Shown: piece by piece, positions 9,221 to 63,184 of the stretch
How the letters are laid out: the number at the start of each line of letters is the position of its first letter
Numbering within the stretch: position 1 is the stretch's first letter
Origin: a virus
Strand: one strand, 5' to 3'
DNA length: 64,000 bases
Virus record (IMG/VR): IMGVR_UViG_3300049846_001128
Coordinates: 1 to 64,000 of that record
The notes under the pieces: model-generated
What the model was told of the DNA's origin: nothing
Database searches by the model: none
Seen by the model: the letters and a program-made list of their open reading frames with translations, nothing else
Position numbers and translations under genes: made by a program

Positions 9221-9493
9221 TCAATCAATAGCTTCTAACAACTCAGTCTTGTAATCAGCCACTAAATCATACCATTCCCTAGTAACACCATACCTTGAAT
9301 TCTTCTCTTTAGTATATTCGTATCTTTGAACAAATCTGAAATTCTTATATTGTGGGTACTTAGCTTCATAATCTGCCATAAATTGTATAATCTCGCTAAA
9401 CGAGTCTATTCCACTGAACGGGTGTTGTAAAGTCTTATAATCGCCAGAAATGGTGGCTATTTCATTTATTGCAGTTTCTAGTATTACGCTCAT
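9221..9493 (-). CDS. Hypothetical protein, C-terminal tag family (..KTELLEAID)
   Basis: ORF; ATGA overlap. Confidence 0.7.
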   Translation of the reverse strand: MSVILETAINEIATISGDYKTLQHPFSGIDSFSEIIQFMADYEAKYPQYKNFRFVQRYEYTKEKNSRYGVTREWYDLVADYKTELLEAID

Positions 9494-9678
9494 GAGAGTG
9501 CCTTTACTAACTCAGTTGCAACTGTAACACTAATTCTTCTATCTGAGAATATCACTAACTTATCGTTAACATCTCTACCATGTATGTAGTATCCGTCAAA
9601 ATCCAAGTACTTAAATACAGTAGTAGTGCCGCTTTCTAGGTCTTTAGCTACGTACCATTCATTTTTTAGTAAAATCAT
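9490..9678 (-). CDS. Hypothetical protein, C-terminal tag family (..ATELVKALS)
   Basis: ORF; overlapping stop/start. Confidence 0.7.
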   Translation of the reverse strand: MILLKNEWYVAKDLESGTTTVFKYLDFDGYYIHGRDVNDKLVIFSDRRISVTVATELVKALS

Positions 9679-9857
9679 AGGAGTGCCTTCATCAGTTCAG
9701 TCTTTGCCACTTTAACTAGCCAATGTCCTTCATTGTCATAATACTCAATAGAATCGGGAACATATCCAGAATAACCAACACTTGTGTATCTTCTAGTGGC
9801 TTCCACCCATTCCCATAGTTTAGTGAACTCTTCTTCTGTAACCCATTTAATTTTCAC
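9675..9857 (-). CDS. Hypothetical protein, C-terminal tag family (..KTELMKALL)
   Basis: ORF; overlapping stop/start. Confidence 0.7.
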   Translation of the reverse strand: MKIKWVTEEEFTKLWEWVEATRRYTSVGYSGYVPDSIEYYDNEGHWLVKVAKTELMKALL

Positions 9858-10048
9858 AGTAACTCACAGTCTTTACCAAAGTAAAGCTCTTCAATTGGAT
9901 AGCCAAAACCGTTTGAATATTGAACGTAACCTCTTAATTCAGCATCTTTGTCCCAAACTTCAATAATATAGCCCGCCTTTGCCACAATATTACCGTAGCA
10001 GTCGTATAAGTCTCTTAACAGCTTAATTTTATATTTCTTTTTCTTCAT
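9854..10048 (-). CDS. Hypothetical protein
   Basis: ORF; overlapping stop/start. Confidence 0.65.
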   Translation of the reverse strand: MKKKKYKIKLLRDLYDCYGNIVAKAGYIIEVWDKDAELRGYVQYSNGFGYPIEELYFGKDCELL

Positions 10049-10257
10049 AATAATGCCACCTCAAGCGGAGTTAATTCTCTAAATTCCCAATCTTCTAGGT
10101 AGAGCTTACAAGTTCGTCCGTCACTTAAATTCCCTTCAATAAAAGGAACATTGTTTTCCACAGTTATACTTGTGGCAAGGAATGTAACTTCCCTAAGCCA
10201 AGTTCCCCACGTATTACCCTCTGCCTTATACCAAGTTCCAACAGTCATAAAATTCAC
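10045..10257 (-). CDS. Hypothetical protein, C-terminal tag family (..LTPLEVALL)
   Basis: ORF track. Confidence 0.7.
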   Translation of the reverse strand: MNFMTVGTWYKAEGNTWGTWLREVTFLATSITVENNVPFIEGNLSDGRTCKLYLEDWEFRELTPLEVALL

Positions 10258-10276
10258 AGTATCTTATTAATTTAAC

Positions 10277-10528
10277 TTAGTCAAGGGCTTTTCTTAGTGG
10301 GCAATTTCTCCACCATTTATTATGTTTTTCCGCCCGCTTATATTCAGCTGTCATCCTAACTTGGCGGTAGTCCCCATAAAGCCTTTGGGTTAAGATTCTA
10401 ATATTAGGACAGGCTGTTATGTCGTAGCCTTTGTCCTGTAGAAACTTATCCAAGATTAGTTTAAAAAGCATTTCTGAGGCTTCCTGTGGCGTTAGACCTA
10501 GCCAATGCTCTGTTGTGTAGGTCTTCAT
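10277..10528 (-). CDS. Hypothetical protein, C-terminal tag family (..CPLRKALD)
   Basis: ORF track. Confidence 0.65.
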   Translation of the reverse strand: MKTYTTEHWLGLTPQEASEMLFKLILDKFLQDKGYDITACPNIRILTQRLYGDYRQVRMTAEYKRAEKHNKWWRNCPLRKALD

Positions 10529-10750
10529 TTAAAGTAACGCTCTGCCTAGTTCTGTGCTCTTTATAAGCCCTATCCTGCGGTAGGCTTCTTCCATAGCTTC
10601 AATCAAGTCAGACACCGCCATGCCGCTGTAATAACTTGTATCTACGTTCTCAAAGTTATTTGCCACAAGCTTTTCAATAAGTTGCTGTTGTTTTGGAGTG
10701 GCAGGTTTTCCAGTTGCTTGTATTATCATATAATTACTCGATAATGTCAA
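10529..10750 (-). CDS. Hypothetical protein, C-terminal tag family (..STELGRALL)
   Basis: ORF track; start uncertain. Confidence 0.65.
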   Translation of the reverse strand: MTLSSNYMIIQATGKPATPKQQQLIEKLVANNFENVDTSYYSGMAVSDLIEAMEEAYRRIGLIKSTELGRALL

Positions 10751-11096
10751 TAGTATACCCTACGACCTTACCGCCTTTCTTCCTTTTTTTAACCACATAG
10801 GAGCCTTGTTGGCGATGGGTGTTGATTAAAACCCCTCTGCCCGTTATATAAGGTTTAATTTCCATAGCTACTTCATCCTCTTTAGCCAGTTCTAACACTC
10901 TGTCAATCGTGTTAAACGGGTTTAAAGGGTCAACTGGCGTGACATCTATGTTGCGCCCCGTAGCCGGGTCTAACTCAATTGTAGGCGATCCTGAGAAAAA
11001 CTGAGCATCTCCAATATAAATCACCCCACTGGTTAATAACCCCTTTAATTTAGGCTCTTTTTTCTTCCTTACTCTCTTGGGTTTCGTCTGAGACAT
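10734..11096 (-). CDS. Hypothetical protein
   Basis: ORF; GGGGAG RBS. Confidence 0.65.
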   Translation of the reverse strand: MSQTKPKRVRKKKEPKLKGLLTSGVIYIGDAQFFSGSPTIELDPATGRNIDVTPVDPLNPFNTIDRVLELAKEDEVAMEIKPYITGRGVLINTHRQQGSYVVKKRKKGGKVVGYTIDIIE

Positions 11097-11380
11097 ACTA
11101 ACTCCCCTACCATTTTGTTCTTTTCTGTTGAAATTATCGCATTTTCTTCCATAAGTACGTCAAGAATTTGCGTAAATAGTTGTTCTTTAAGGTAATCTTG
11201 ATACTCACTTGGCATATCTTTGTGGTTTAGTACCAATTGTTCGCGTTTTACCGTGGTAAACCAACGATCTATCCACTCGTTCAAAGCTCTTTCTCGCATT
11301 TCTACGTAGTTCCAGTGCTTTTGGTCAGGCATTCTCACCACTTCTCTAAGTTCTTTCATGGCTTTGTCAAAGTTTTTCAC
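11069..11380 (-). CDS. Hypothetical protein
   Basis: ORF; GTGA overlap. Confidence 0.65.
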   Translation of the reverse strand: MKNFDKAMKELREVVRMPDQKHWNYVEMRERALNEWIDRWFTTVKREQLVLNHKDMPSEYQDYLKEQLFTQILDVLMEENAIISTEKNKMVGELVCLRRNPRE

Positions 11381-11610
11381 AATAATGCCTTTAAAAGTGG
11401 TCTTTCTTCAAGCCAGTCTAGAAATTCCCTTTCTGTAGCTGGACTTACCAGTAGCCAGTTGTTATCATTCTCATCCGTCCAAATATAGGAGCTATCTCCA
11501 ACGTAAATATTGGACTCAATACCCACGTAATTTCCACTTGCCAGCATTTTATATATGTGTAAATTGTTATCTGTCATAAATCTTCGTTGTGTATAATATC
11601 CATCTGTCAC
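11377..11610 (-). CDS. Hypothetical protein, C-terminal tag family (..RPLLKALL)
   Basis: ORF track. Confidence 0.65.
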   Translation of the reverse strand: MTDGYYTQRRFMTDNNLHIYKMLASGNYVGIESNIYVGDSSYIWTDENDNNWLLVSPATEREFLDWLEERPLLKALL

Positions 11611-11660
11611 CTTGCCACAAAAGTTGCTACACTTTTTAGTGGGAAACTGTCACACTGGCA

Positions 11661-11873
11661 CTAACCCTCTTGCTCATCCTCGGAGCCTTTACTAAAGTTA
11701 AAACTATCTGGTCCAAAGTTACCCATATTATAACTCACAACGATGGCTTTTGCAATCTGTTCTGAGATGTGACTGATATTTTCTGGATTACCAGAGAACT
11801 CCCATACCACTAGGTCTGTTATTACGTAAGCTCCACGCAGACTCTGCAAAAATGTCATAACACACCCCGTCAT
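11661..11873 (-). CDS. Hypothetical protein
   Basis: ORF track. Confidence 0.45.
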   Translation of the reverse strand: MTGCVMTFLQSLRGAYVITDLVVWEFSGNPENISHISEQIAKAIVVSYNMGNFGPDSFNFSKGSEDEQEG

Positions 11874-11954
11874 ATAAGTGGTTGTTTTTTCGTTCTACCA
11901 AGTAAGGTTGCGGAAACGCCTTTTTGCGTTTCGCAAACACGGAAGTTTGAAATA

Positions 11955-11964
11955 GCAACCTTAT
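11955..11964 (+). promoter_or_regulatory. Putative phage late-promoter motif RCAACCTTAW (copy at start of late operon)
   Basis: Same motif at 8321, 14432, 17527, 22631, 26562, 37871 and 44262, at or next to gene junctions. Confidence 0.7.
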
Positions 11965-11969
11965 ATAAT

Positions 11970-12839
11970 ATGGATAGAAAAAGTGCAATACAGGAATATT
12001 TGAAAATGGTAGAGGAAGGTCGCCCTTTCTCTGAGGACATTATTGGTAAAACTCGTGATATTGAGGACGATGCCCTTCGGGCAAGAAATCTATCTGGAGA
12101 AGCTCTTGCCAATCAGGTTTTAAAAGACACAGGAATTCCTATTCCGGGTAAAGAGGCTTCTCGCTTAAAGCAGGAGGATTTTCTTAACCGTATTGTTAAA
12201 GAAAGATACCCGGAGCTTGAGCCAAATGTTGTTCTTGAACCTTCGAGTTCAGCGGGTGGTTACGCCAAAGGTAAAATAGATATAAACTCAGATTTGGCTA
12301 AAATCTGGACACCGGAAAGAAAAGTAGGAACTTTACTGCATGAGGCAGGTCATCAATATGACGATGAAATTCTCAATAAAGCAGGAAAAAACTTAGACCT
12401 TGGCACTCTTCGCAAATTAAAAGATAGCGGAGTTGATCTTAAATCTATGGACCCTACTGAAGTTTATGAGCTGTATGCTAAAAATCACCATGCAAATATT
12501 CCCGGCTTAAGAGAAGGCACATTTGAGCTTGGTGCTCTTAAGAATTACTTAAAAAAAGGTACTTTTCGTGGCATAGCCCCGGCTATTCTTAAAGGTGCAG
12601 GAGCTATTGCGGGAGGAGCTGCAACACTTGCTGCTGAAGCTTCAGACTCAGAAGAGGAAGGTAGTTCTGCTGAGCAAGCTGCGCTACTTAGAGAGATTGA
12701 TGATAGAAAAATGCGGGAAAAAAATCTCGCGGCTTCGCCGGAAATGAGAGCTGCGTTTGAAAAAATGTATGAAGAGGCTGATACGGGTAAAATGTTTGAT
12801 GCTCGCAGAGATGCGCTTAGAAATTTAGTGAGGAAATAA
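11970..12839 (+). CDS. Zincin (HExxH) domain protein with Gly-rich segment and shared C-terminal signature; putative virion cargo
   Basis: TLLHEAGHQYD; first gene of the late operon. Confidence 0.65.
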   Translation: MDRKSAIQEYLKMVEEGRPFSEDIIGKTRDIEDDALRARNLSGEALANQVLKDTGIPIPGKEASRLKQEDFLNRIVKERYPELEPNVVLEPSSSAGGYAKGKIDINSDLAKIWTPERKVGTLLHEAGHQYDDEILNKAGKNLDLGTLRKLKDSGVDLKSMDPTEVYELYAKNHHANIPGLREGTFELGALKNYLKKGTFRGIAPAILKGAGAIAGGAATLAAEASDSEEEGSSAEQAALLREIDDRKMREKNLAASPEMRAAFEKMYEEADTGKMFDARRDALRNLVRK

Positions 12840-13279
12840 TGAAAAAAGAATTAACTCCTGAGCAGATTGCAGAACTTATTAAATCCGCTGGAGGAAATGC
12901 CTCTATGTCATCCGAAAAAGCTATTGACGCTGGGGTTGGTACTGATTATCGTAAAAACATGTTAAAACTACTTAAACAAATAAAAGCACAATCTCCAGAA
13001 GCTATAAAAGAGGCAGGTCGTCAAGTCTATGGGGAATTAGATGATGCTGCTGGTTCTAGAGTTGCATCTACTTTGGTAAAACGATTACCGGCTGCTGCGT
13101 TAGGAGGAATTGGCTTACTAGGGTCTATGGGAGCTGAAGCAGCAACCACAGAAGATATTGGCGAATCTCCAGAGGAAGAGGCTATAATGCTTGCTGAGAG
13201 AGATGCTACGGAAGATTACAAGAATTCTCCGGCTTTTGCTGCTAGACGAGCCGCTATTGAAAAACTAAGAGGTCGTTAA
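12839..13279 (+). CDS. Putative virion cargo protein, shared C-terminal signature
   Basis: LPAAALGGIGLLG...GESPEEEA...ARRAAIEKL. Confidence 0.6.
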   Translation: MKKELTPEQIAELIKSAGGNASMSSEKAIDAGVGTDYRKNMLKLLKQIKAQSPEAIKEAGRQVYGELDDAAGSRVASTLVKRLPAAALGGIGLLGSMGAEAATTEDIGESPEEEAIMLAERDATEDYKNSPAFAARRAAIEKLRGR

Positions 13280-14238
13280 TGGCTGACGATAATAAACTAT
13301 CTTCTTTAGCAGCTTACTCTGCTGCTTTAAAACAGATTAGTGAATCCCCAGAAGGATTACCTTCTATTAATCCAAAAGCTTCAGCAAAAATAGCAGAAGC
13401 TTACAGTGCATTACAACATAGTCCAGATGATCCTGCAGTCCAACGAGCATATCAAGCATTGATTGATGAAACTGTTCAGCAATACAAAGCAATGCAAGAT
13501 CAGGGTTTAAAAATTTCCAAAATAAAACAAGGAATGGACAATCCTTATCCAAATTCCAAAGCAATGATTAAAGATGTTGCTGAAAATAAACATCTTTGGT
13601 ACTACCCGACTGAGCAAGGTTTCGGTTCTTCTGGGGCGGATAGCTCAAAACATCCCATGTTAAAAGTTACTGATCTTTTAGATGATGAAGGCAAGCCAAT
13701 GTTGGCTAATGACGTGTTTCGCGCAGTTCACGACTACGAAGGACATTACAAAGGTAATAATAAGTTTGGAGCTTTAGGAGAAGAAAGGGCTTATCAACAA
13801 CATAAGAAAATGTTCTCGCCAGAAGCTGTTAAGGCTTTAACCACAGAAACTCGTGGGCAGAATTCTTGGGTTAATTATGGACCTTATGGGGAAGCCAATC
13901 GCGCCAATCCAGCAAAAACAACTTATGCTGATCAGAAAGCAGGGTTACTTCCAGATTGGGCTAGTAAGAATGTTGATGAGATTGCAAATCCTCTTTTATA
14001 TAATGCTAAACAAGCTGGTAAAATGGTAATTAAGACTGGACTTCCAGCAATAGCTATTGGTGCAGCATCCTCTGAACCAGATTTAAGCTCTGCATTCATG
14101 AATACTGTAATTCCGGGTGGAAATCCTGAAGCTGGGGAAAGTCCAGAAGACGAAGCAGCTTTGATAGGTGAAATTCAGGGCTATAAAAATTATCAAAAAG
14201 CTAAGCGGGATGCGCTAAGGGCTTTGCTAAAAAAATGA
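13279..14238 (+). CDS. Polyvalent-protein-like domain (FRAVHDxxGH..GEERAY) with shared C-terminal signature
   Basis: NDVFRAVHDYEGH...FGALGEERAY..H...ETRGQNSWVNYGP is a divergent metal-binding motif. Confidence 0.6.
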   Translation: MADDNKLSSLAAYSAALKQISESPEGLPSINPKASAKIAEAYSALQHSPDDPAVQRAYQALIDETVQQYKAMQDQGLKISKIKQGMDNPYPNSKAMIKDVAENKHLWYYPTEQGFGSSGADSSKHPMLKVTDLLDDEGKPMLANDVFRAVHDYEGHYKGNNKFGALGEERAYQQHKKMFSPEAVKALTTETRGQNSWVNYGPYGEANRANPAKTTYADQKAGLLPDWASKNVDEIANPLLYNAKQAGKMVIKTGLPAIAIGAASSEPDLSSAFMNTVIPGGNPEAGESPEDEAALIGEIQGYKNYQKAKRDALRALLKK

Positions 14239-14432
14239 AAAAGAAAGAATTAGAATCTAATTTACTAAATGATATTTTCTACGCTGCAATGCCTGAGCGA
14301 AAAATTCGCCCAAGTAAGCAAGAGCCACAGGAATCAGAAGAGGATTCTGAGTATCTTGACGATCTGCGTGAAAAGAAACGCGCTCGCTACGAAGCACTAA
14401 AACTTAAAGCCCGTGAAGGTTGGGGCGAATAA
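14235..14432 (+). CDS. Small hypothetical protein
   Basis: ORF; ATGA overlap. Confidence 0.6.
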   Translation: MKKKELESNLLNDIFYAAMPERKIRPSKQEPQESEEDSEYLDDLREKKRARYEALKLKAREGWGE

Positions 14433-14509
14433 CAACCTTATTAGTTGAGACTTAACTGAGCTAAGCCAAATATCAAACGACTTTGGTAAACTCACATAAA
14501 GGATAAACC

Positions 14510-14848
14510 ATGAAAAAATACCTTGACGCATTTCCTGCGTTTGCCTCCCTGTTCTTCCTGATTTACATTGCAATTAATCCAGAAAGCATTGGTCCCATTG
14601 TGGGATTTGTTGCTTCTGTTTGTCTGTTTGCTTACCAACAATATTTATTTAGAACTGAGCAGCCAGACATTGTGGCTGAGCTTGCTAAGGTTAGAGCTGA
14701 GCTTGCTAGTTCTGTTGTTGACTTAAAAGAAAAAGCTGGGAAAGAAATTACACAACTTCGCGATGATGTTGCTAAGTTTAGCTTATCGATGACTAGAGTT
14801 CCGGGTGCGGTTGAGAAGCCTAAAGAACGACAGAAAGTGAGTTTCTAA
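14510..14848 (+). CDS. Two-TM membrane protein with coiled coil (holin-like?)
   Basis: Two N-terminal hydrophobic helices; AAGGA RBS. Confidence 0.55.
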   Translation: MKKYLDAFPAFASLFFLIYIAINPESIGPIVGFVASVCLFAYQQYLFRTEQPDIVAELAKVRAELASSVVDLKEKAGKEITQLRDDVAKFSLSMTRVPGAVEKPKERQKVSF

Positions 14849-17517: not shown

Positions 17518-17560
17518 ATAAAAATAGCAACCTTATATCCTAGAAACACAAGGAATTAAA

Positions 17561-47253: not shown

Positions 47254-48109
47254 GAACGCCGGAAAATCGGAAATGTCAGAATCAAATGACTTAATGCGAG
47301 CAAACATTGCCCGTCTTGAAGCCATTGGAATTCCAACCATTGAGGCGCAAAAAATAGCACTTCAAAACCCTGAATTAGTTGAGCCATTAATCGCTGAACA
47401 GCTTGGTGCTTCTGCAATGCAAGACGTTCAAATGGACCCTCGCCTTATGGCGGCTCAACGAGCTGCTTTGGACGAAATGACTGGGTTAGGGCAGACAGGT
47501 CTTGGTGCTGAGGATAGAACTGCTTTTAACCAGCTAAGAAGACAAGCCGCAGCCGCTGCTGAGGCTCAACAAGCTTCTACCTTGCAAGAAATGGCTTCTC
47601 GTGGTATGCTCGACTCTGGTGCAAATCTTGCAGCTCAGTTAGCAGCAGGACAAGCTCAGGCTGACAGAATGAGTCAGGAAGGTGATAGAATTGCAGCTTC
47701 TGCCGCTGAGGCAAGAAGAGCAGCTTTAGGACAGCAAGCAAATATGGCAAGTCAAATGTCAGCTCAAGACATTGGCTTAAAAACAGGCAAGGCTTCAGCA
47801 GCTGACACTATTGCTCAGTTTAATGCTCAGCAAAGAGCCGGTGTAGGCGCAGCTAATAAAGCGTACGAGCAGCAAAGAGCCAACCAACTTGCAGGTCTTA
47901 GACAGCAAGAGGAAATACATAACAGAGGACTTGTTCAGCAGCAGTTCCAAAATAAGATTCAAAAAGCTGGGGGAGTTGCTCAGCAGCAAAGCCAAATGGC
48001 TGCTAATCTTCAGAACCAAGCAGCTGCAGCTCAACAGGCTCAGCAAGCAATGACTTCTGGATTATTAAACCTTGGCGGAACTTTAGGAGCCGCAGCTATA
48101 AAAAAGTAG
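47246..48109 (+). CDS. DNA ejection (pilot) protein; possible -1 frameshift extension to 48189
   Basis: Ala/Gln-rich; ASRGMLDSG motif; ends in A AAA AAG TAG. Confidence 0.7.
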   Translation: MSKNAGKSEMSESNDLMRANIARLEAIGIPTIEAQKIALQNPELVEPLIAEQLGASAMQDVQMDPRLMAAQRAALDEMTGLGQTGLGAEDRTAFNQLRRQAAAAAEAQQASTLQEMASRGMLDSGANLAAQLAAGQAQADRMSQEGDRIAASAAEARRAALGQQANMASQMSAQDIGLKTGKASAADTIAQFNAQQRAGVGAANKAYEQQRANQLAGLRQQEEIHNRGLVQQQFQNKIQKAGGVAQQQSQMAANLQNQAAAAQQAQQAMTSGLLNLGGTLGAAAIKK

Positions 48110-53449: not shown

Positions 53450-53780
53450 ATAACTCCGCTTGCTTTAAAATTTCCTCGTTAACATCAAAAATTCCCTCCT
53501 TAATCATGTAAAATCTCTGCTTTCCGTGTCGATAATCTGGTAAATGCTTTCCAAAAGTTTGGAAGAAAGTAATTTTCTTAGCCTTACCCTTCTCCTGATC
53601 CAACTTCCAAATTCTTCGATAAACGTAAAAGATTAGATAGTTTGGAACAGCGTGAGTGCCAGCTTCAATTCCCATATCTTGGATAAAGTTCATGACACTC
53701 TTGTTATCTTCGGGAGCCTTCCTTCCGGTTGACTCCCTTGATTGAACTAACTTAAGCAATTCTTCAATTGACTTACTCAT
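53367..53780 (-). CDS. Hypothetical protein (possibly winged-helix)
   Basis: ORF track. Confidence 0.6.
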   Translation of the reverse strand: MSKSIEELLKLVQSRESTGRKAPEDNKSVMNFIQDMGIEAGTHAVPNYLIFYVYRRIWKLDQEKGKAKKITFFQTFGKHLPDYRHGKQRFYMIKEGIFDVNEEILKQAELYDRQYWGKKEAQKRISPSIEERVEDET

Positions 53781-54550
53781 TAGAACTCCAGTTTTACCTG
53801 ACGAGTGGCTCGTTTAATAGCTCTTGCGCCAATGCTATTTCCCGCGATTTTCTTACCATTCAGCGAAAAGCCAATCGGCATAGAAATTAGTGGGCATTTT
53901 GAGTACTCAACGCTAGCAGGTCCAAAGATTGTGGCAACGTCCTCAGTGTAAGTTCCAGAGAGAGATTTGTCGCAGATTACAGAAGCAACTTCATCGGCAT
54001 GTTTTTGATTAACAGCGGCTTGTCCACCAATCCAAAGCTCATTAATAATAGCGTTCTGGTAAGCTTCTACAGACATTCCGACTCTCTTAGCAGCCTTTAC
54101 ATTCATTTCATCAAGCACATCCTGAATCATTTTCAGGCGTTGGTTGGCTTCTCCCGGCACTTGTCCAGAAAGACCTGAGATAGCACCTCGGTGAGACATA
54201 AGCATTCCAGAAGAAATAATGTAACGTTTTCCAAGCTCTTGAGTAATTTGGTAGCCCATTGATGCGGCAAAAATTACAACAGTGTGAACTGGGCGATCAA
54301 GGCTCTTCACAAAGTCAATAAAGTTATTCCCAGCCATAACAGAACCGCCGGGAGTGTCTAGTACTAAATAAATAGGTTGAGTTTTAGGAAGGGCTTGGTG
54401 CTTGATTAGAATTTCAAGTTGCTTCTTAGCAACGTAGTCTTCTTTCACTGGCTGGTTAAAAGCCACTGAGTTATTTTCAGACAAAGTAATAGTAGCCGAG
54501 TTGGCGTTTAGTGATGCAGCAAGAAAAGCTGCGGTAACGAATTTAAACAT
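53780..54550 (-). CDS. ClpP-family (S14) serine protease with N-terminal signal peptide
   Basis: LDTPGGSV, AASMG (Ser), LMSH (His); MFKFVTAAFLAASLNANSA signal-like leader. Confidence 0.8.
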   Translation of the reverse strand: MFKFVTAAFLAASLNANSATITLSENNSVAFNQPVKEDYVAKKQLEILIKHQALPKTQPIYLVLDTPGGSVMAGNNFIDFVKSLDRPVHTVVIFAASMGYQITQELGKRYIISSGMLMSHRGAISGLSGQVPGEANQRLKMIQDVLDEMNVKAAKRVGMSVEAYQNAIINELWIGGQAAVNQKHADEVASVICDKSLSGTYTEDVATIFGPASVEYSKCPLISMPIGFSLNGKKIAGNSIGARAIKRATRQVKLEF

Positions 54551-54578: not shown

Positions 54579-54607
54579 ACAATATCAAATGGAAATTATT
54601 TTGTCAA
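54579..54607 (-). promoter_or_regulatory. sigma70 promoter
   Basis: TTGACA-17-(TG)TATTGT upstream of the ClpP-like gene. Confidence 0.6.
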
Positions 54608-54609
54608 CA

Positions 54610-54969: not shown

Positions 54970-55264
54970 CTAAAACGATTTTTTCAGTAAATCCGCCACG
55001 TTGGCTAAACTTTTTTTCTCTAGCTTCAAACACAGATTCTTCAAATCCATGAGCTTTACACACTGCAGCAAATACCTCAAGAACATCTGCTAGCTCTTCA
55101 AGCAAGTTTTCTGGAGAAGCTGATAAAACTTCGTTGGCCTCTTCCACAAGCTTTTCTTTTAAAAGCTGCAAATATTCAGATTGCTCAGCAATGTAAGTGT
55201 CCATAGCTCTGCCTTCTTTTTCTAAAACCATGGCAGGAAGTTTATCTCGAATAAGTTTTTTCAT
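54950..55264 (-). CDS. MazG-like / phosphoribosyl-ATP pyrophosphohydrolase-like NTP pyrophosphatase
   Basis: KLIRDKLP..KLVEEANE..EELADVLEV..RGGF. Confidence 0.85.
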   Translation of the reverse strand: MKKLIRDKLPAMVLEKEGRAMDTYIAEQSEYLQLLKEKLVEEANEVLSASPENLLEELADVLEVFAAVCKAHGFEESVFEAREKKFSQRGGFTEKIVLVGPCKK

Positions 55265-55476
55265 ACAAGTGCCTTAAGTAGTGGAGTTAATAATATAAAT
55301 GCGTCTTCTTCCAGCTGTTTACAATTATCATATAGTCTTTCAGAGTAACCATAGTGTCCTCCAAAGTCAATGAAAACTCTATAGCCGCCATCATTGGTAA
55401 CTTCCGATATTTCAGCAAAGTCAGGAATTTGCTCGTGGTAGTAGCGAATGAATTTATCGCCAAGTTTGTACTTCAA
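55261..55476 (-). CDS. SH3/KOW-like small protein, C-terminal tag family (..LTPLLKALV)
   Basis: ORF track. Confidence 0.7.
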   Translation of the reverse strand: MKYKLGDKFIRYYHEQIPDFAEISEVTNDGGYRVFIDFGGHYGYSERLYDNCKQLEEDAFILLTPLLKALV

Positions 55477-55652
55477 AATAAAGCCTTCGTTAAATCCGTT
55501 AGTTTCACAACTTCACTTGGTCGGCATTTATAGATACAGTCATAAAAAGTAACGTAAGTAGGAGTTACTTCCTTAATTGTATAAACCTTGCCTTCAAATA
55601 CACTATAACTAGGAACTATAACTTCGTCGCCAACTTTAATTTCTTTTTCCAT
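55473..55652 (-). CDS. SH3/KOW-like small protein, C-terminal tag family (..LTDLTKALF)
   Basis: Read manually: MEKEIKVGDEVIVPSYSVFEGKVYTIKEVTPTYVTFYDCIYKCRPSEVVKLTDLTKALF. Confidence 0.75.
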   Translation of the reverse strand: MEKEIKVGDEVIVPSYSVFEGKVYTIKEVTPTYVTFYDCIYKCRPSEVVKLTDLTKALF

Positions 55653-56020
55653 TCATTCCTCTGGGCATTTTCCGCCAGTGTTTTACTTAAATGGCAACCA
55701 GACTTACACAAAGCCTGTAAGTTATCTTCGCCGCAGAATAGTCTTTTAAAATGCACGTTCCAGTCTCTGTTGCCTTGCACATCTAAAGGCACAACTGGGT
55801 CAATATGATCGACCTCAATCTTGTCTACAATAGCTGTAGGATGGTCTAACTTTATAACGTCGATAGACCTTGCTCCAGAGTAGACAATTTGCCCACAACC
55901 TTCACACTTATAAAGTTCAGGTCCGATCTTTGCTCTTGCCTTTACGTTTTTTATCGGTTGCCACTGCCTCGCTAGTTTCCTCAAGGCTGTGTCCACCTTC
56001 GCTTGAAATCTTTTGTCCAC
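55616..56020 (-). CDS. HNH endonuclease
   Basis: YKCEGC..VDHIDPV..NLQALCKSGCHLSKT. Confidence 0.8.
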   Translation of the reverse strand: MDKRFQAKVDTALRKLARQWQPIKNVKARAKIGPELYKCEGCGQIVYSGARSIDVIKLDHPTAIVDKIEVDHIDPVVPLDVQGNRDWNVHFKRLFCGEDNLQALCKSGCHLSKTLAENAQRNEWKKKLKLATKL

Positions 56021-57708: not shown

Positions 57709-57887
57709 AATAAAGCCTCAAGTAGCGGAGTTGGACGAATAAAATTTGTGGGATATGATAAATAAAATGTTTCTTTAAATGTAACTCGGTTTTTAGTAAT
57801 TTCTTCAATAGTATAAATTGTACCAATATCAAACCAAGGATACATGTTTACTAAAACCTTGTCACCAACTTTAAAACTACTCTGCAT
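57705..57887 (-). CDS. SH3/KOW-like small protein, C-terminal tag family (..PTPLLEALL)
   Basis: Start moved to MQSSFKVGDKV. Confidence 0.7.
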   Translation of the reverse strand: MQSSFKVGDKVLVNMYPWFDIGTIYTIEEITKNRVTFKETFYLSYPTNFIRPTPLLEALL

Positions 57888-58120
57888 ACACAGCCAAAGG
57901 CTCGTAAAAAAATAAGTCAAGCTGTAAGTAAAAAGTACCAAGATTAATATGTTTCTTGTCTAAATCTGGATTAACGTAGCTAACCACTACAACATCCCCT
58001 TCTCTTTTAGCTTCAAAAATTTCACCAGTTAAAAAGGAATAGTATATTCCATCAACAGGGCTATAATTTACCGGCTTAGCAAATACTTGTAGAATAAAGT
58101 ATTTACAAAAAAAGTAAAGG

Positions 58121-58411
58121 TCAATGGTTTTGGTTGCCGCCTCTACCACCGTTGCCGTTGTCACTTCCTTCACCTTCGTCCCCGTCATCGTCAGCCTCGC
58201 TACCAAGCCCTGCAAAGTACTCTTCAAGTTCGTTTTCAAAATCAACCTCCATCTGTTTTAAATCAATTAAAGCAAACTTCATTCCACCAAGGTCAAAGCC
58301 TGACGCAATGAGGAATTTTTCAAACTCAGCCACAACTTCTTCCAAACTTTCCGTACTGAAGTTAATAGCAGCTTCGCCTTGTTTGTCTTTTTTCTTAAAT
58401 GTAAATTTCAT
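58121..58411 (-). CDS. Hypothetical acidic phage protein
   Basis: ESLEEVVAEFEKFLIASGF. Confidence 0.65.
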   Translation of the reverse strand: MKFTFKKKDKQGEAAINFSTESLEEVVAEFEKFLIASGFDLGGMKFALIDLKQMEVDFENELEEYFAGLGSEADDDGDEGEGSDNGNGGRGGNQNH

Positions 58412-58584
58412 TAGTTAGCCTTTTTACAAGTATATCGCTCACCATCTACAATAACATGCTGAGTTGTTAAAGAAGCTTTTGCAACAAAGCCTTGGTAGAG
58501 GATAACACTAAAAATAGAAAATGACAACAAAATAGTTATGTAAGCTCCGATTAAAAAACTACTAAAACATTTAATAAATTTCAT
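58411..58584 (-). CDS. Small membrane protein
   Basis: MKFIKCFSS followed by a TM segment. Confidence 0.55.
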   Translation of the reverse strand: MKFIKCFSSFLIGAYITILLSFSIFSVILYQGFVAKASLTTQHVIVDGERYTCKKAN

Positions 58585-58769
58585 TCCAAAGCCTCGATTA
58601 AAGGAGTAACTGGAATGGCATGTTTTGGAAGAAAAGCCCAATCGTAAACTTCTCCAAAATAATAATGCATTCCATCAAAACTGTTTATTCTCTGAATAGT
58701 TCCATTGAAATAAGATAAACCATAATCAGTAGCAGTAATTAAAACTCTGTCGCCAACATTGAATTTCAT
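58581..58769 (-). CDS. SH3/KOW-like small protein, C-terminal tag family (..VTPLIEALE)
   Basis: MKFNVGDRV N-terminus. Confidence 0.7.
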   Translation of the reverse strand: MKFNVGDRVLITATDYGLSYFNGTIQRINSFDGMHYYFGEVYDWAFLPKHAIPVTPLIEALE

Positions 58770-59152
58770 TTCTTCGATTCTCTTTCAATTAATTTGTCTA
58801 AATAAATTTTAGCTTTTTGCAAATCCTTTACCCCGTCTTTTTCTTTATATCGCCAGATGTATTTGAAAATATTTCCTTCCAAAAAGTCCATCTCTTGGTC
58901 TAAAATAACGTCCCAACACTCAAGCTTACCCTTCTTGTTGTAACGCTTAGGCTTTTCAATGTCTTCAGAACTAGTGACAGGAATTAAAGGTTCAGCCAAC
59001 TCCAAGTCACCTACATCAAAAGCTATAGTATGGCAACCAGTCATATCACACATGTAAACCATGAATTGATTCTTTTCTGGAATATATGATTTAATAACTC
59101 CACTTCTAGGGAATACTTCTCTTGTTTTAACATTATCACCAACTTTAAACAT
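58766..59152 (-). CDS. DUF3310 (T7 gp1.7-like nucleotide kinase) fused to N-terminal SH3-like domain
   Basis: PKRYN..ECWDVI..GNIFKYIWRYKEKDGVKDLQKAKIYL. Confidence 0.8.
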   Translation of the reverse strand: MFKVGDNVKTREVFPRSGVIKSYIPEKNQFMVYMCDMTGCHTIAFDVGDLELAEPLIPVTSSEDIEKPKRYNKKGKLECWDVILDQEMDFLEGNIFKYIWRYKEKDGVKDLQKAKIYLDKLIERESKK

Positions 59153-59373
59153 TATTCAACTCCTAGACAAATAATAGTCAATAATTGTCTAACTCTTTCT
59201 GAACTTAAACCCACAGCGTTTGCTGTTTCTTCAATATTATAGCCGCAAAGATAAAGCATTGCAACTCTATATTTTAAAGGATTTTTTGCCCTACCTGCGT
59301 ACAAAGCCTTTTGAACATGCGCTCGACAAGGGTAGTCATATAGTTTCTTATGTAGCCAGAAAATGAACTTCAC
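59152..59373 (-). CDS. Sigma70 region-4-like HTH protein
   Basis: GYNIEETANAVGLSSERVRQL. Confidence 0.7.
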   Translation of the reverse strand: MKFIFWLHKKLYDYPCRAHVQKALYAGRAKNPLKYRVAMLYLCGYNIEETANAVGLSSERVRQLLTIICLGVE

Positions 59374-59549
59374 AACAAAGCCTCCATTAAAGGTGTTAAA
59401 GGTATTAATCTATCCAGCTCACAGTACCAAGTTAAGCCAGTGTAATAACTTGTTACAACAACCCAGCCAGATTTATCACTACTAGTAGGAAAATACTCCA
59501 CAATCTCAGGAATCATGTCTGAGTGAAGTGGGAGGTAAACCATTTTCAT
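59370..59549 (-). CDS. Small protein, C-terminal tag family (..IPLTPLMEALL)
   Basis: Read manually: MKMVYLPLHSDMIPEIVEYFPTSSDKSGWVVVTSYYTGLTWYCELDRLIPLTPLMEALL. Confidence 0.75.
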   Translation of the reverse strand: MKMVYLPLHSDMIPEIVEYFPTSSDKSGWVVVTSYYTGLTWYCELDRLIPLTPLMEALL

Positions 59550-59881
59550 TACTCGCTCTGAAACTTTTCGGCAATCCTATCCGACCATACGATAATGTCT
59601 GGAACATGGTATCCGATAATACTACACATCGTTTCTTCAACCTGATCTGGCGTTAAGTCACTGCTTGTAGTTAAAGACATGTGATATAATACATGTCCAA
59701 GTTCATGTCGAATATCTATTAAAGTCCAGTCTGATTTTCTAAAATGCACTTCATAATTAGGAGGCATCGTAACTCCCGGTCGATCCCCGCCATCTCCGTT
59801 ATGTAGCTTATTAAACTTAGCATCAGAAAGAAGTTTAAACTTCCAATCTCTACCTTTTATATTAAGCGTTATTTCTTTCAT
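59549..59881 (-). CDS. Small zincin-like (HExxH) protein
   Basis: IRHELGH...VEE. Confidence 0.7.
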   Translation of the reverse strand: MKEITLNIKGRDWKFKLLSDAKFNKLHNGDGGDRPGVTMPPNYEVHFRKSDWTLIDIRHELGHVLYHMSLTTSSDLTPDQVEETMCSIIGYHVPDIIVWSDRIAEKFQSE

Positions 59882-59882
59882 A

Positions 59883-60692
59883 CTATTTCTTCTTTTTTTG
59901 TGCAGCCTCGTAAGCCCTAACTGCAGAAGCTACAACTTCAGTCTTATCAAATTTAGCCAAGTTTAGGAAAAGTTCTTCAGTGGCTAACACATCAAAATTA
60001 TTGTAGCGTTCCATTGATTTCCACGCTTTGATATTACCTTTCAAGCATTCGTCCCAAAGCTTAAACCCAGAAAACTCCTCATGATCTTGTTTCTTGTATT
60101 TAGTGTTAAACTTCTTAGACATGTACTCAAGCTTGTTTGAAGTAAATGCAAAGTGTTTTTTAGCCAGTAGGTAAGTATCTATCTTTTTATACTCACTTGG
60201 AACTCCTAAACCATTCTCCAAAAACTTAGCGTTGAGTTTCTTTAAATCGAAAGCCGTGGAGTTTTGCCCCAAGATTATATCAGCCTCGTCCATAAGTTTC
60301 CACAAAGGCTTTAGCAAATCTTTGTCATTTTGAATAGAGTCGCCTTTTTTTGACCTTTGATCTTTATACATAACTTTGTCGTTGTGTAACCATTTAGCTG
60401 TCCAAGAGAGTACAAACCAGTCCCGCTTAATCATGTTCAAAGGAATAGATTGATCGTATAGTCCCCAATGATAGGAAATCATTGGAGCGGTTTCAATGTC
60501 TAAAACTAGAACTTTAGGCAAGTCCTTTTCAATTTCCATACCGTGAGTGTCAATACAGTGCTTTATAGAATCTGGAGTTCTTTTTTGCTGAAACTTGGCA
60601 TTAAAAGCCTTAGCTATTTCAAACCTAGAATAGCCTTTTTTATATTGCTTTAGAACAAACTTTATCTCTCTAGGGTTCCAAGGTTGTTTCAT
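59883..60692 (-). CDS. RNase H-like 3'-5' exonuclease (DEDD) with N-terminal HTH
   Basis: LDIET, QNSTAFD, KIDT and YNNFDV motifs. Confidence 0.85.
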   Translation of the reverse strand: MKQPWNPREIKFVLKQYKKGYSRFEIAKAFNAKFQQKRTPDSIKHCIDTHGMEIEKDLPKVLVLDIETAPMISYHWGLYDQSIPLNMIKRDWFVLSWTAKWLHNDKVMYKDQRSKKGDSIQNDKDLLKPLWKLMDEADIILGQNSTAFDLKKLNAKFLENGLGVPSEYKKIDTYLLAKKHFAFTSNKLEYMSKKFNTKYKKQDHEEFSGFKLWDECLKGNIKAWKSMERYNNFDVLATEELFLNLAKFDKTEVVASAVRAYEAAQKKKK

Positions 60693-60700
60693 TTGTTTCC

Positions 60701-61000
60701 TTATAATAAAGATTTTAATAAATCCGAAATTGGCTTAAGCCTTTTTTGCGGATAGTAGTTGTAGTATATGTTAGTATTATTTTTATTTAATGGCAAGCAT
60801 AAATATTCATAAGGCTTTGCTTTTGGTGAAATATGAATAACTTCACACATTTCCCCATCTAGTAATACAATGTCCCCGAGTTTATATTTAGGCTTTATGA
60901 GTTTCTTATAAAGCCAGTAGTAAGCTTCTCTTAAAGGTCTGTAATGGACTGCTATAATATTAACCAAGAGTAAAATGGCTGTAAGATGGAGAATGTTCAA
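60701..61000 (-). CDS. TM plus SH3-like protein, C-terminal tag family (..ISDLLKSLL)
   Basis: PKYKLGDIV. Confidence 0.65.
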   Translation of the reverse strand: MNILHLTAILLLVNIIAVHYRPLREAYYWLYKKLIKPKYKLGDIVLLDGEMCEVIHISPKAKPYEYLCLPLNKNNTNIYYNYYPQKRLKPISDLLKSLL

Positions 61001-61128
61001 AGCTTATTCCCCAATAGAGTTAAAGTGGCAAGAAGCGTAATGGCTTGAATTACAACCTGAGCAAATTGTAACTTTGCTTGGAACTTTTGGAGCTTGACCC
61101 TTTCTGACTGGTAATCGTGATGTTCCAT
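60997..61128 (-). CDS. Hypothetical 43-aa protein
   Basis: Read manually: MEHHDYQSERVKLQKFQ...; coupled on both sides. Confidence 0.5.
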   Translation of the reverse strand: MEHHDYQSERVKLQKFQAKLQFAQVVIQAITLLATLTLLGNKL

Positions 61129-61337
61129 TATAGTAAAGCCTCCATCAAAGGAGTTAGAGGAATCCAAGGTTCTGATAAAAATGTCTCAACTACCCAACTA
61201 AGGTTTGTTACGGCTCCATAATTATAGCACAGTTTGAAATCTACCACTGTAGTGCGTAAAGCAGTTATAACACAAGTGTCTATAGCTTTAGTTTGCGAGT
61301 TAACCCTATAATAACGTTTTCCAACTAATAATTCCAT
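61128..61337 (-). CDS. Small protein, C-terminal tag family (..IPLTPLMEALL)
   Basis: ORF track. Confidence 0.7.
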   Translation of the reverse strand: MELLVGKRYYRVNSQTKAIDTCVITALRTTVVDFKLCYNYGAVTNLSWVVETFLSEPWIPLTPLMEALL

Positions 61338-61711
61338 CTTCGCTTCTTCCCAACTCTTAAGTCAACGTGGACAAATCCTTTATTCCGTCCGTCACCAACG
61401 GCTTCAAAGTATTTTTCGCACAATAAATATAATTTGTCAAGCTTTTCTTTTGAGCTTACTGTTGGGCGAATGTCAACGGCTTTTCCAAGGCAATGCTGAC
61501 TGGAAGGTGCTCCACCAATTTGCTTATTGTAAGCAGGAGAGCGATAACCAGAGGTAATTGTTAGAGACTCCCCGAATTCTTCTCTAAGTTTATCAAGTTT
61601 GTCAATCAGCTCTTGCTCAATGAAAAACTCTTTGTCAGAGCCGTTTTCAAACTCTTTGGTTGAGAAGTATTTTCCAAGTTTTTTATACTGACCTTTTTTC
61701 CAACAAATCAT
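61325..61711 (-). CDS. Peptidase M15A endolysin
   Basis: ITSGYRS..N..IGGAPSSQH..GKAVD..FVHVD. Confidence 0.88.
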   Translation of the reverse strand: MICWKKGQYKKLGKYFSTKEFENGSDKEFFIEQELIDKLDKLREEFGESLTITSGYRSPAYNKQIGGAPSSQHCLGKAVDIRPTVSSKEKLDKLYLLCEKYFEAVGDGRNKGFVHVDLRVGKKRRWNY

Positions 61712-61896
61712 ACCAATGTCTCAATTAATGGAGTAGCTAATATAAATCTGTGAATGTTCCAATTAGATTCTACTTCAACTAAGCTAATTAATTCATATTC
61801 CTCACTAAACACGCTTTCAATTGTATATACTTCTCCTAAAAATAAATAAGTATTGTGTGGTTTTATACAAATTACTCTATCTCCGACTTTGAACAT
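61708..61896 (-). CDS. SH3/KOW-like small protein, C-terminal tag family (..ATPLIETLV)
   Basis: MFKVGDRVICI. Confidence 0.7.
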   Translation of the reverse strand: MFKVGDRVICIKPHNTYLFLGEVYTIESVFSEEYELISLVEVESNWNIHRFILATPLIETLV

Positions 61897-62758
61897 CTTT
61901 AAGTATCCTATGAAATGGGTGATTTTCTGGGTAATAAGCCTTAAAAAGCTCTACCTCCCAACTCTCTCCTAGCCTGTTGTTATTTGTGTAATTATAAAAT
62001 TGTTTTGCCAGTTTTGTCAAGAAAGTTTCTGTCTCTGTTAACTCAAGGAATCTAAACCGAAACCACCAGAGAACTTTTGTTGAAGTATTATCTTTCTTAA
62101 CACTGGCTAAGAAGGCTGCGAGAAAGAAAGCCACAGACTGTATAAAAGAACACTTCCTACCAATGCCACTAAGATAGATAACAAAATTAGTGACAGAATG
62201 CTTAAAAAAGATAGGGTAAAACCTAGGATGGTTTCTAACAGCTTTCCTAAGCCCTGTTTCCAGCTTTTCATAAGAACGAGCCTCCGTAAAATATGCTTTT
62301 AAATCCTTCCAAAAACCAGCCTTAAAAACGCTTGCCGAGCTATCTATAAGTTCATAGCCGGGAACGTCACAAAAGCGGTTATTGGTCATTTGTGCGTGTT
62401 CTACAATATGTTCGTTAGACTTTAAATCCCCAGCGCACCAGTTGGTGAAGCAAGCCCCAGTTATTTCGTCAAAAGAAACTGGAACAAAGTTAGGCTTACC
62501 GTCCTTTTGTTTGAATCGGTACGGAACTGGATGGCGAGAGTAAAGCCCGGGATAGTTATCAACTTGGCAGGAAGAAATTGCCTTACGCAATGAGTCAAAG
62601 TCTGAGCTTTGAAAATTCCCAATAAGCCTCTGAAGAATGGCTAATTCTCCAGTGTAGAGTAGTTGATTATTAGTAGAAGCTTCTCCACCATTAACAGGCT
62701 TTAAATCCATTCTTCCAAGGTTGTCTTTATAGTATTCAATAGTTGTTTCTAAGTCCAT
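61877..62758 (-). CDS. Hypothetical protein
   Basis: Start moved to MDLET with AAGGA RBS. Confidence 0.65.
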   Translation of the reverse strand: MDLETTIEYYKDNLGRMDLKPVNGGEASTNNQLLYTGELAILQRLIGNFQSSDFDSLRKAISSCQVDNYPGLYSRHPVPYRFKQKDGKPNFVPVSFDEITGACFTNWCAGDLKSNEHIVEHAQMTNNRFCDVPGYELIDSSASVFKAGFWKDLKAYFTEARSYEKLETGLRKAVRNHPRFYPIFFKHSVTNFVIYLSGIGRKCSFIQSVAFFLAAFLASVKKDNTSTKVLWWFRFRFLELTETETFLTKLAKQFYNYTNNNRLGESWEVELFKAYYPENHPFHRILKDVQSRR

Positions 62759-62765
62759 AAATTCC

Positions 62766-62969
62766 TTAAAGAAGAGCCTTTTCAAGGTCAGAAAGCTCTC
62801 TAACTTTGGTGTCACTTCTAGTGGAGCTGAGTGGAATAACTGTATCTAAATGATAAGGTTTAGGACGTCCTAGCCACTCTATAACATACATGTCTTCTTT
62901 TTGTATTTCTAAAATGACATACTCAATATGGTGTGCAGCGCATAGATAAACTTCTCCGACTTTTTTCAT
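62766..62969 (-). CDS. Small protein, C-terminal tag family (..LSDLEKALL)
   Basis: ORF; GGAGG RBS. Confidence 0.7.
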   Translation of the reverse strand: MKKVGEVYLCAAHHIEYVILEIQKEDMYVIEWLGRPKPYHLDTVIPLSSTRSDTKVRELSDLEKALL

Positions 62970-62977
62970 AAGCCCTC

Positions 62978-63184
62978 CTAAATCAATGCTAGCATAAGTT
63001 CAGAAGCTTGTCCAACATATTTGTCGTATTGCATGGCATGAACTGGGAATTGCTCAGCTCCAACATCCATTGTCCAATAGACTGTAACCCAGCCGTTTAG
63101 TTCGTCAATGTCTAAAACAATGTACTCGCCAATAACTTCTCCGTCAAAAGTCTCTTGGTAAATCCCGTGTAAAATTGGTTTCAC
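62978..63184 (-). CDS. Small protein, C-terminal tag family (..ASELMLALI)
   Basis: ORF track. Confidence 0.7.
   Translation of the reverse strand: MKPILHGIYQETFDGEVIGEYIVLDIDELNGWVTVYWTMDVGAEQFPVHAMQYDKYVGQASELMLALI

Follow-up and report, generated by a model that had tools for sequence, protein, structure and literature searches.

The C-terminal peptides that bind clamps include the PIP-box, Qxx[LIVM]xx[FY][FY], the bacterial consensus QL[SD]LF, and the gp45-binding tails of phages T4 and RB69. SSB ends in the tip DDDIPF, the ankyrin-repeat proteins of poxviruses share a C-terminal PRANC/F-box-like domain of about 40 residues whose known reader is SCF, and ssrA-type degrons end in ALAA-COOH. 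The capsid-targeting sequence of T4 stands at the N-terminal end of internal proteins, which are late or packaged, and is cleaved by the prohead protease. Here we describe an eight-residue tag, [TS]-x-L-x-x-[A]-L-x-COOH, that is found at the C-terminal end of many small early-strand proteins of a phage genome, IMG/VR virus record IMGVR_UViG_3300049846_001128. The window that was analysed is a stretch of 64,000 nucleotides, bases 1-64000 of this 84,740-bp record, which is rated complete by CheckV. The genome (G000) was compared with eight related IMG/VR genomes (G001 to G008). On balance, we lean towards the view that the tag is a docking peptide for one common, putative reader, and that it doubles as the ribosome-binding site (RBS) of the next gene.

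In kind, the tag appears to resemble the hub-docking peptides (clamp-binding tails and the SSB tip) and the poxvirus PRANC domain, while its sequence, its bearers and its putative reader would be new. Clamp-binding peptides, like the tag, are about eight residues long, often lie at the extreme C-terminus, carry spaced aliphatic anchors, and end in a hydrophobic pair; they bring many proteins to one hub, as the tag is proposed to do. The tag, however, has T/S where these have Q, its first leucine comes one position earlier, at 3 instead of 4, and it closes with Ala/Glu-Leu-x in place of two aromatics. A leading Q or a final pair of aromatics, as the clamp-binding/PIP-box consensus would have it, occurs in none of the 39 tags found genome-wide. 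The bearers also differ, being dozens of tiny uncharacterised proteins here and replication enzymes there. The SSB tip is likewise a terminal short linear motif that acts as a hub link, but its sequence is unrelated and its topology is reversed, since one tail serves many partners in SSB and many tails presumably serve one partner here. The PRANC proteins form a viral multigene family with variable bodies and a constant C-terminal docking element. Their domain of about 40 residues belongs to viruses of eukaryotes, whereas the tag has eight residues, occurs in a phage and has a reader that is putative. As in ssrA, the C-terminus is exact, hydrophobic and includes A-L, but the last residue of the tag is variable, additional residues are tolerated in relatives, and the conserved T/S(-8) and Leu(-6), counted back from the last residue, lack a counterpart in ssrA. 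The capsid-targeting sequence of T4 is also a short peptide address label common to unrelated phage proteins; unlike it, the tag is C-terminal and is carried by early-strand genes. No description of such a tag system was found among the titles and abstract openings returned by a full-text literature search, and to that extent the opinion of the first-pass annotation, which was made from the letters alone, that no such system had been described still holds.

The first-pass annotation had listed 18 minus-strand open reading frames (ORFs) of the window that share the tag. Each ORF end was re-read, and all 18 octapeptides were present at the coordinates given below. A 19th, weaker member was found at 7123-7443. 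In the following list, KVGD-type denotes a body of the barrel family described further on, which was defined by a hidden Markov model (HMM), and SD a Shine-Dalgarno sequence.

2255 to 2560, minus strand: 101 residues, ending TDLEVALC; outside the KVGD body HMM
7123 to 7443, minus strand: 106 residues, ending TALNQALV; weak member
9221 to 9493, minus strand: 90 residues, ending TELLEAID; stop without an overlapping start, codon -4 GAA
9490 to 9678, minus strand: 62 residues, ending TELVKALS; AAGG within the tag, ATGA overlap with the next start
9675 to 9857, minus strand: 60 residues, ending TELMKALL; orthologue in G002 ends SALIKELL
10045 to 10257, minus strand: 70 residues, ending TPLEVALL
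10277 to 10528, minus strand: 83 residues, ending CPLRKALD; next start 22 nucleotides downstream, codon -4 AAA
10529 to 10750, minus strand: 73 residues, ending TELGRALL; body not KVGD-type, TAA stop with ATG directly after
11377 to 11610, minus strand: 77 residues, ending RPLLKALL; orthologue in G002 ends TPLLLELK
55261 to 55476, minus strand: 71 residues, ending TPLLKALV; KVGD-type
55473 to 55652, minus strand: 59 residues, ending TDLTKALF; KVGD-type, modelled as a beta-barrel with a C-terminal helix
57705 to 57941, minus strand: 78 residues from the first TTG (the database form, from a later ATG, has 60), ending TPLLEALL; KVGD-type
58581 to 58769, minus strand: 62 residues, ending TPLIEALE; KVGD-type
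59370 to 59549, minus strand: 59 residues, ending TPLMEALL; outside the KVGD HMM
60701 to 61000, minus strand: 99 residues, ending SDLLKSLL; hydrophobic at the N-terminus, then a KLGD body, own SD past the TAA stop, codon -4 AAA, orthologues in G001, G002, G004 and G005 end TGLLKELE
61128 to 61337, minus strand: 69 residues, ending TPLMEALL; KVGD-type
61708 to 61896, minus strand: 62 residues, ending TPLIETLV; KVGD-type, orthologue in G002 ends SSLIKELM
62766 to 62969, minus strand: 67 residues, ending SDLEKALL; KVGD-type, TAA stop with the next start 10 nucleotides downstream
62978 to 63184, minus strand: 68 residues, ending SELMLALI; SD (GAGGG) after the TAG stop, no K/E at -4

Another 20 tagged ORFs were found in the 20.7 kb beyond the window, bringing the total to 39 genome-wide, with lengths of 59-139 residues. 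In a crude non-nested set of ORFs, a heuristic that lost four of the tagged ones, tagged ORFs made up 35 of the 114 minus-strand ORFs of at least 40 residues, or roughly one in three ORFs on the early strand. The pattern in its strict form, [TS][PDE]L..[AST][LI]., has 45 matches in the six frames of the genome; a stop codon followed directly in 37 cases, 36 of them on the minus strand, and eight matches were not terminal. Of 419 ORF ends, 39 scored at least 10 bits with a position-specific scoring matrix (PSSM) built from the 39 tags, whereas not one of 38,929 internal positions did (Fisher p = 1.9e-78). As this matrix was trained on the same 39 ends that it scored, the zero at internal positions is the sole real control. 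A chance origin of the tag is excluded. No large or annotated protein bearing the tag was found when the PSSM was applied to the ORF ends of G000.

The tag is exactly terminal in G000, although its last residue is variable: it was L in 21 of the 42 ends that match a more generic form of the motif, and otherwise Y, E, V, F, I or others. The claim that the motif always stands at the very end held for this genome but had to be given up more widely, since one to three residues follow it in four of 21 external homologues, and zero to eight in the relative G003.

We then asked at which level the tag is conserved. Synonymous codons for T(-8), L(-6), A(-3) and L(-2) were used at the background frequency of the genome (chi-square p = 0.15-0.26); L(-6), for example, was encoded by TTA 18 times, by CTT and CTA seven times each, by TTG five times and by CTG twice. 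Conservation was concentrated on codon positions 1 and 2, and third positions were free. The exception was position -4, where Lys was encoded by AAG in 16 and AAA in four cases and Glu by GAG in nine and GAA in one, against a background of about 0.36 for G-ending codons. In 24 of the 39 tagged genes the stop codon is overlapped by a start codon (ATGA, GTGA, TTGA or TAATG); of the remaining 15, 13 have a start 3-37 nucleotides downstream and two have none. AAGG or GAGG spans codons -4/-3 in 18 of the 24 overlapping genes, 7 nucleotides before the start, a register shared by other genes, and an SD tetramer was thereby found within the 5-9 nucleotides before an overlapping start that mark an SD located in the upstream gene. 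The K/E codon at -4 ended in G in all 20 overlapping cases (binomial p = 1.3e-9 against background), compared to five of ten non-overlapping ones (Fisher p = 0.0018). The SD overlay is therefore seen only at the -4/-3 codon pair.

The 15 genes without an overlapping downstream start, 9221 and 10277 among them, provide a check that had been proposed for the tag. These genes keep T/S in 14, L(-6) in 15, A(-3) in 14, and L or I(-2) in 15 of the 15 cases. The tag is thus under selection at the level of amino acids, and RAG-GCN doubles as the SD of the next gene, which explains the third base of one codon only. Both the argument of the first-pass annotation for protein-level selection and its caveat about the RBS were borne out, the latter solely for codons -4/-3 of genes whose stop is overlapped by the next start. 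The two copies of IPLTPLMEALL (59370 and 61128) do differ synonymously at six of 11 codons, as had been pointed out. The locus is a clean natural case of dual coding, in which a peptide motif and the next RBS occupy the same nucleotides and the two layers can be separated codon by codon.

Searches with the DNA pattern of the exact G000 tag gave next to nothing in ten relatives (0-1 matches each), as if the tag were unique to this genome. We rejected that possibility, as the small early ORFs of the relatives end in related peptides of other dialects. Dialects were counted with the generic terminal motif [TS].L...[LM]. together with the residue at -3. Ala predominated at -3 in G000 (33 of 42 ends) and G006 (five of eight), and Glu in G001 (12 of 14), G002 (20 of 24), G004 (20 of 24), G005 (nine of 11), G007 (six of eight) and G008 (16 of 19); G003 gave no match. 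In G002, 25 ORFs end in [ST][ST]LxxEL(L). G003, which is 95% complete, has 16 KVGD proteins that end in HP[TI]LVKLW[RQ]LD followed by zero to eight residues, a third, longer and non-terminal dialect. The dialects are therefore A(-3) in G000 and G006, E(-3) in six relatives and the longer form in G003. The ending in G003 (contigs L031-L034; for example the minus-strand ORFs at 48081, 52853 and 73760) is near-invariant, much less varied than the tags elsewhere, and this uniformity suggests that the KVGD set of G003 is a recent expansion. An ORF of G006 at 8091-8336 on the minus strand (contig L024) ends in SSLEKAL plus the four extra residues CIGY, and looks like a tag whose stop was lost.

Orthologous proteins were compared between G000 and G002 using tag-stripped bodies, and eight pairs were obtained with E-values from 1e-20 to 7e-4. 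In seven of the eight, G002 has E at -3 where G000 has A, S or T; the 7123 pair has A in both. The match across genomes was far better than that to any paralogue within the genome for 10277, 7123, 60701, 9675 and 11377, while for the KVGD-type pairs 61708, 80249 and 68799 the margin did not exceed roughly one order of magnitude. Up to seven relatives have orthologues of 10277, 60701 and 7123, and these followed the same pattern as the G000-G002 pairs. We also compared the -3 residue of the 10277-like gene with that of neighbouring tagged genes in 17 further metagenome contigs: one was of the A type, with three A neighbours, 15 were of the E/Q type with E neighbours, and one (L077) was odd, with Y/L. 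On contig L076, position -7 (P/E vs S) and position -3 vary independently. Tag dialects are concordant within genomes and across families.

A shift in SD preference along a lineage might have produced such dialects. In genes of at least 120 residues, AAGG was placed with a spacer of 7-8 in G000 to G003, and GGAG with a spacer of 5-6 in G001 to G003 and 4-6 in G000; with SD placement so alike, K-A (AAGG) and K-E (AAGGAG) share one register, and Glu would yield the stronger SD. E(-3) in G002 is moreover often encoded by GAA, so that no GGAG is formed, including in genes that have a TAA stop and a separate downstream start. Given the common register and the GAA codons, a lineage-wide shift in SD preference does not account for the dialects.

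The proteins that carry the tag were next compared without it. Bodies from which the last nine residues had been removed fell, in pairwise phmmer comparisons at E <= 0.01, into clusters of 6, 4, 3, 2 and 2, with 22 singletons; at E <= 0.1, 25 of the 39 were linked. Twenty-seven sequences could be aligned on the pattern KVGDxh ... hhIxEV ... h-x-h ... tag. An HMM of the KVGD body alone matched 26 of the 39 tagged ORFs and missed 13; it had been trained on most of the 26. Its only untagged matches at E < 1 were the early-strand ORF 58766 (DUF3310, E 0.48) and the late-strand ORF 27150 (E 0.8). With six tag-stripped KVGD bodies as its seed, an iterative HMM search recruited no further sequences at E <= 1e-3. 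The bodies had been described as otherwise very divergent. With 26 of 39 in one family this is too strong, and the tag of most members counts as a family trait too; the description remains apt in so far as an unrelated all-alpha family is tagged as well.

An AlphaFold2 model of 55473, from an alignment of 46 sequences, showed a small beta-barrel (strands 10-12, 23-29, 34-36 and 39-43, plus a short bridge) with a helix at residues 53-58 and a mean predicted local distance difference test score (pLDDT) of 87.8. Its top neighbours in the PDB were ribosomal KOW proteins and KOW domains from NusG and Spt5, at template modelling (TM) scores by query of 0.56-0.71, none with a Foldseek E-value better than 0.019. 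Its structural matches also included many small phage proteins that are uncharacterised; over all these comparisons no Foldseek E-value was better than 0.005. Weak, sub-threshold profile matches of the KVGD family to PDB sequences pointed to Spt5, eS4 and L24. The KVGD bodies are thus predicted to be KOW/SH3-like barrels, as the first-pass annotation had proposed from their KVGDxV start, with a resemblance at the level of the fold only. They would share this fold with the C-terminal domain of NusG, the KOW domains of Spt5, ribosomal L24 and eS4; to our knowledge, none of these has such a conserved terminal helix.

The AlphaFold2 model of 10277 was all-alpha, with seven helices and a pLDDT of 84.2, and the tag formed a separate last helix at residues 77-82. 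This protein has 10 external homologues with 48-83% identity, and all 11 family members end exactly in a variant of the tag, of the TPLRKALE or SPLWKALS types or of the TGLGKELF/TGLGKQLF types. When the KVGD profile was aligned with the 10277 family using hhalign, the alignment covered the final 12 columns only. In the models, then, the tag is present on two unrelated folds, a barrel and an all-alpha protein, and the suggestion that it is helical agrees with the short terminal helix predicted in both. These folds are those of the two proteins modelled, the 12 other non-KVGD bodies being unclassified. ESM Atlas gave no usable feature matches for 10277 and 80514, for which its own models were poor (pLDDT 0.50 and 0.45).

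None of the 39 tagged ORFs exceeded a Pfam cut-off, that of KOW included, the best match being PF24203 (Phage_ProQ_C_like) for a single member with 19.7 bits against a cut-off of 27, and no Pfam family was matched by more than one of the 39 at E <= 0.1. PHROGs gave three weak matches for the 18 listed proteins, all to families of unknown function, and in Pfam nothing exceeded the cut-off for the larger tagged proteins or the core uncharacterised early ORFs. Queries with the small proteins against cultured phages returned only matches at E = 0.8 (a Klebsiella phage) and at 2e-3 and 4e-2 (Amedibacillus phages). Sixty-four matches at E <= 1e-3 were returned when a profile was searched against 1.84 billion representatives; 43 of them were read, and the other 21 were mostly proteins of 233-918 residues. 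The 43 comprised 18 proteins of G000 itself, 21 external metagenomic proteins of 60-82 residues with both the KVGD body and the motif, and four long proteins with tandem FKVGD repeats and no tag. Seventeen of the 21 external homologues end one residue after the AL/VL/TL pair. All 10 external homologues whose clusters were looked up were metagenomic; two were called 'hypothetical protein', one 'sporulation protein YlmC with PRC-barrel domain', and seven were nameless. None of the seven matches of a word-indexed search with alignment A3 was named.

The docking model that we favour would account for these observations as follows. The tag would be a short docking peptide, probably an N-capped two-turn helix, that is kept by selection on the protein. 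It would serve as one handle on the expanded family of KVGD/KOW-like barrels and on several unrelated small early proteins. A single putative partner, of phage or host origin, would read all tags, and its specificity would vary by phage lineage, so that each genome has one dialect (A; E; ...LVKLWRLD). Secondarily, the K/E-A codons would have been recruited as the SD of the next gene, because the genes are packed with ATGA-type overlaps. Divergent bodies, two unrelated folds and change in step within a genome make one reader the simplest common cause, and from these sequence patterns we infer that the common constraint on the tags is a binding partner.

Several points weigh against this model. 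With 26 of the 39 tagged ORFs in one family, and body and motif coupled in 21 external homologues, the tag of most members could be no more than the helix that closes the domain. In the model of 55473 that helix has a pLDDT of about 90, as expected if it packs on its own barrel. A single non-KVGD body was modelled, and some of the 12 other non-KVGD tagged ORFs may be remote barrels. Variants such as TGLGKELF contain two glycines, which are poor helix formers. Independent switches are few in number: the two genomes with the A dialect, G000 and G006, are more closely related to each other than to the rest, with terminases that are 78% identical. The 7123 family departs from the resident dialect, as A(-3) is kept even in E-dialect genomes; its orthologues end in SSLENALN in G002, G004 and G008, and in SSLEKALM in G006, itself of the A dialect. 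In addition, neither of the two candidate readers that were weighed, an AAA_5 ATPase and a ClpP-like protein, gave any signal.

The first of these points leads to the main rival explanation, namely that the tag is a structural helix of one paralogous barrel family, a C-terminal cap without a role in docking, which is terminal because packed genes stop where the domain ends. This would explain why the KVGD HMM found 26 tagged ORFs and only one untagged early-strand ORF below E = 1, why 25 of the 39 stripped bodies are linked at E <= 0.1, and why body and motif occur together in 21 external homologues, four of them with extra residues. All 16 members in G003 are also KVGD-type with a motif that is not terminal, and the helix in the 55473 model is of high confidence. 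We nevertheless consider this explanation unlikely, since the 10277 family is all-alpha, with only the last 12 columns of its profile matching KVGD, and 13 of the 39 tagged ORFs lie outside the body HMM. Furthermore, a replacement of A by E in seven of eight pairs, on what is presumably a conserved i/i+3/i+4 face, would need a compensating change in each body. Alternatively, the tag could be a degron or timer, a special case of a reader in which a protease (host ClpXP, ClpAP or Lon, or perhaps the phage ClpP-like protein) clears early proteins. The tag is hydrophobic and at the exact C-terminus in G000, and a ClpP-family protein is encoded on the early strand at 53780-54550 and kept in G001 to G005. 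That protein, however, also matches head-maturation proteases, and the last residue of the tag is variable. A degron had been suggested before; one anchored by its free carboxylate fits poorly because the motif is not terminal in G003 (0-8 residues follow it) and in four external homologues (1-3 residues), and we regard this possibility as quite improbable.

Two further explanations start from the packing of the genes. The peptide could be a by-product of translational coupling, dictated by the SD, spacer and start of the next gene. A start overlaps the stop in 24 of the 39 genes, AAGG or GAGG is present in 18 of these 24, and the third base of the K/E codon is G in every one of the 20 overlapping cases (p = 1.3e-9). 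The information in the tag, however, lies at codon positions 1-2, with background synonymous usage for T, L, A and L. The tag is intact in 15 genes without overlap, the SD register is identical in A- and E-dialect genomes, and other overlapping genes, such as 9854-10048, lack the tag. Coupling as the sole cause is thus largely refuted, and we give it very little weight. The nascent peptide might instead act in the ribosome at termination, tuning release or re-initiation at the stop-start overlap. The register to the stop is indeed fixed in G000 and in the E-dialect genomes, and tags go with coupled genes, but 15 uncoupled genes have the tag all the same, the G003 motif is not terminal, and lineage dialects would be unexpected for a conserved ribosome tunnel; the chance that this is the explanation seems slighter still.

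A more far-reaching reading builds on the docking model, and we incline to it only tentatively and with rather more doubt than conviction. A clade of phages with genomes of about 80 kb would run an 'address code', in which a third of the early proteome is plugged into one putative reader that was re-tuned at least twice (A, E and LW), with dozens of tags following. In virology, no pool of genes without known function is larger than that of the small early phage proteins, which are also the usual home of host-takeover and anti-defence activities. If the reading is true, finding the single reader would offer a first way into the functions of dozens of orphan proteins together, and the tag would be a portable element of eight residues with natural orthogonal dialects (A/E/LW). 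It would also show a viral interaction network co-evolving as a block.

Candidates for the reader were sought among the early genes. The first-pass annotation had named the AAA+ ATPase of the window, an AAA_5/MoxR-like protein encoded at 445-1617 on the minus strand, as a possible hub. This protein is without the tag, and nothing points to it as the reader: its orthologues score 580-598 bits in both A- and E-dialect relatives, with no difference between dialects, and in five of the seven relatives the protein has a different ending. We therefore dropped it. The orthologues in G001, G002, G004, G006 and G008 end in (D/E)(S/E)(D/E)IPF; the G000 protein ends in EENAKK, without IPF in any nearby frame, that of G007 ends in DTTF, and that of G003 differs. 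The IPF ending may be a mimic of the SSB tail that recruits host SSB partners.

The ClpP-family protein at 53780-54550 on the minus strand (Pfam CLP_protease, E 5.9e-14) is encoded far from the capsid genes. Weak matches to head-maturation protease families of phages were obtained for it as well, and since none of the seven late-strand ORFs scanned matched a protease family, it may simply be the head protease. It was dropped as a reader, as it gave no signal and matches head-maturation proteases too. Pfam and PHROGs scans of about 40 ORFs revealed no clamp family; several ORFs, such as 61877-62815, had no match at all. A sequence search of the PDB with 61877-62815 found no match.

We also considered the source genome as a whole. 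A near relative was not found among cultured phages by megablast, and in tblastn searches the terminase was at most 29% identical to that of any deposited phage, although 16 IMG/VR contigs have terminases that are 61-78% identical to it. The 20.7 kb outside the window carries minus-strand early and replication genes throughout, encoding PolB, a DnaB-like helicase, a primase, ERF, a PD-(D/E)XK nuclease, ribonucleotide reductase and a LAGLIDADG endonuclease.

A conserved protein of 153 residues at 63184-63645 on the minus strand ends in VGLGLALEF, and a second of its kind is encoded at genome position 64017-64520, also on the minus strand. No Pfam or PHROG match was found for the former. In four relatives, which include both dialects, the orthologues have the close variants GLGIALEF or GLGLSLEF as their ending; that of G003 ends in AVGFGVDL. 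The GLGLALEF ending was considered as a form of the tag and rejected, as it is a distinct motif that is constant across dialects. Alternating hydrophobic residues ending in Phe resemble the C-terminal signal of outer-membrane beta-barrels. The ending suggests that the two are Lom/OmpX-like proteins, and that the host is a diderm.

Other genes lie among the tagged ones. An endolysin/peptidase-like gene at 61325-61711 on the minus strand (phrog_894, E 2.4e-32) sits within the tagged early-strand genes, and its start is overlapped by the tagged gene 61708-61896. An HNH endonuclease gene (window 55616-56020, minus strand) and a LAGLIDADG homing endonuclease gene (genome 82127-82942, minus strand) are scattered between tagged genes. 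On the late strand, three of four neighbouring ORFs upstream of the terminase, at 11970-14432 on the plus strand, share another ending, ...A(R)RDALRxL(x)(R/K)K or ...ARRAAIEKLRGR, which is a motif separate from the early-gene tag.

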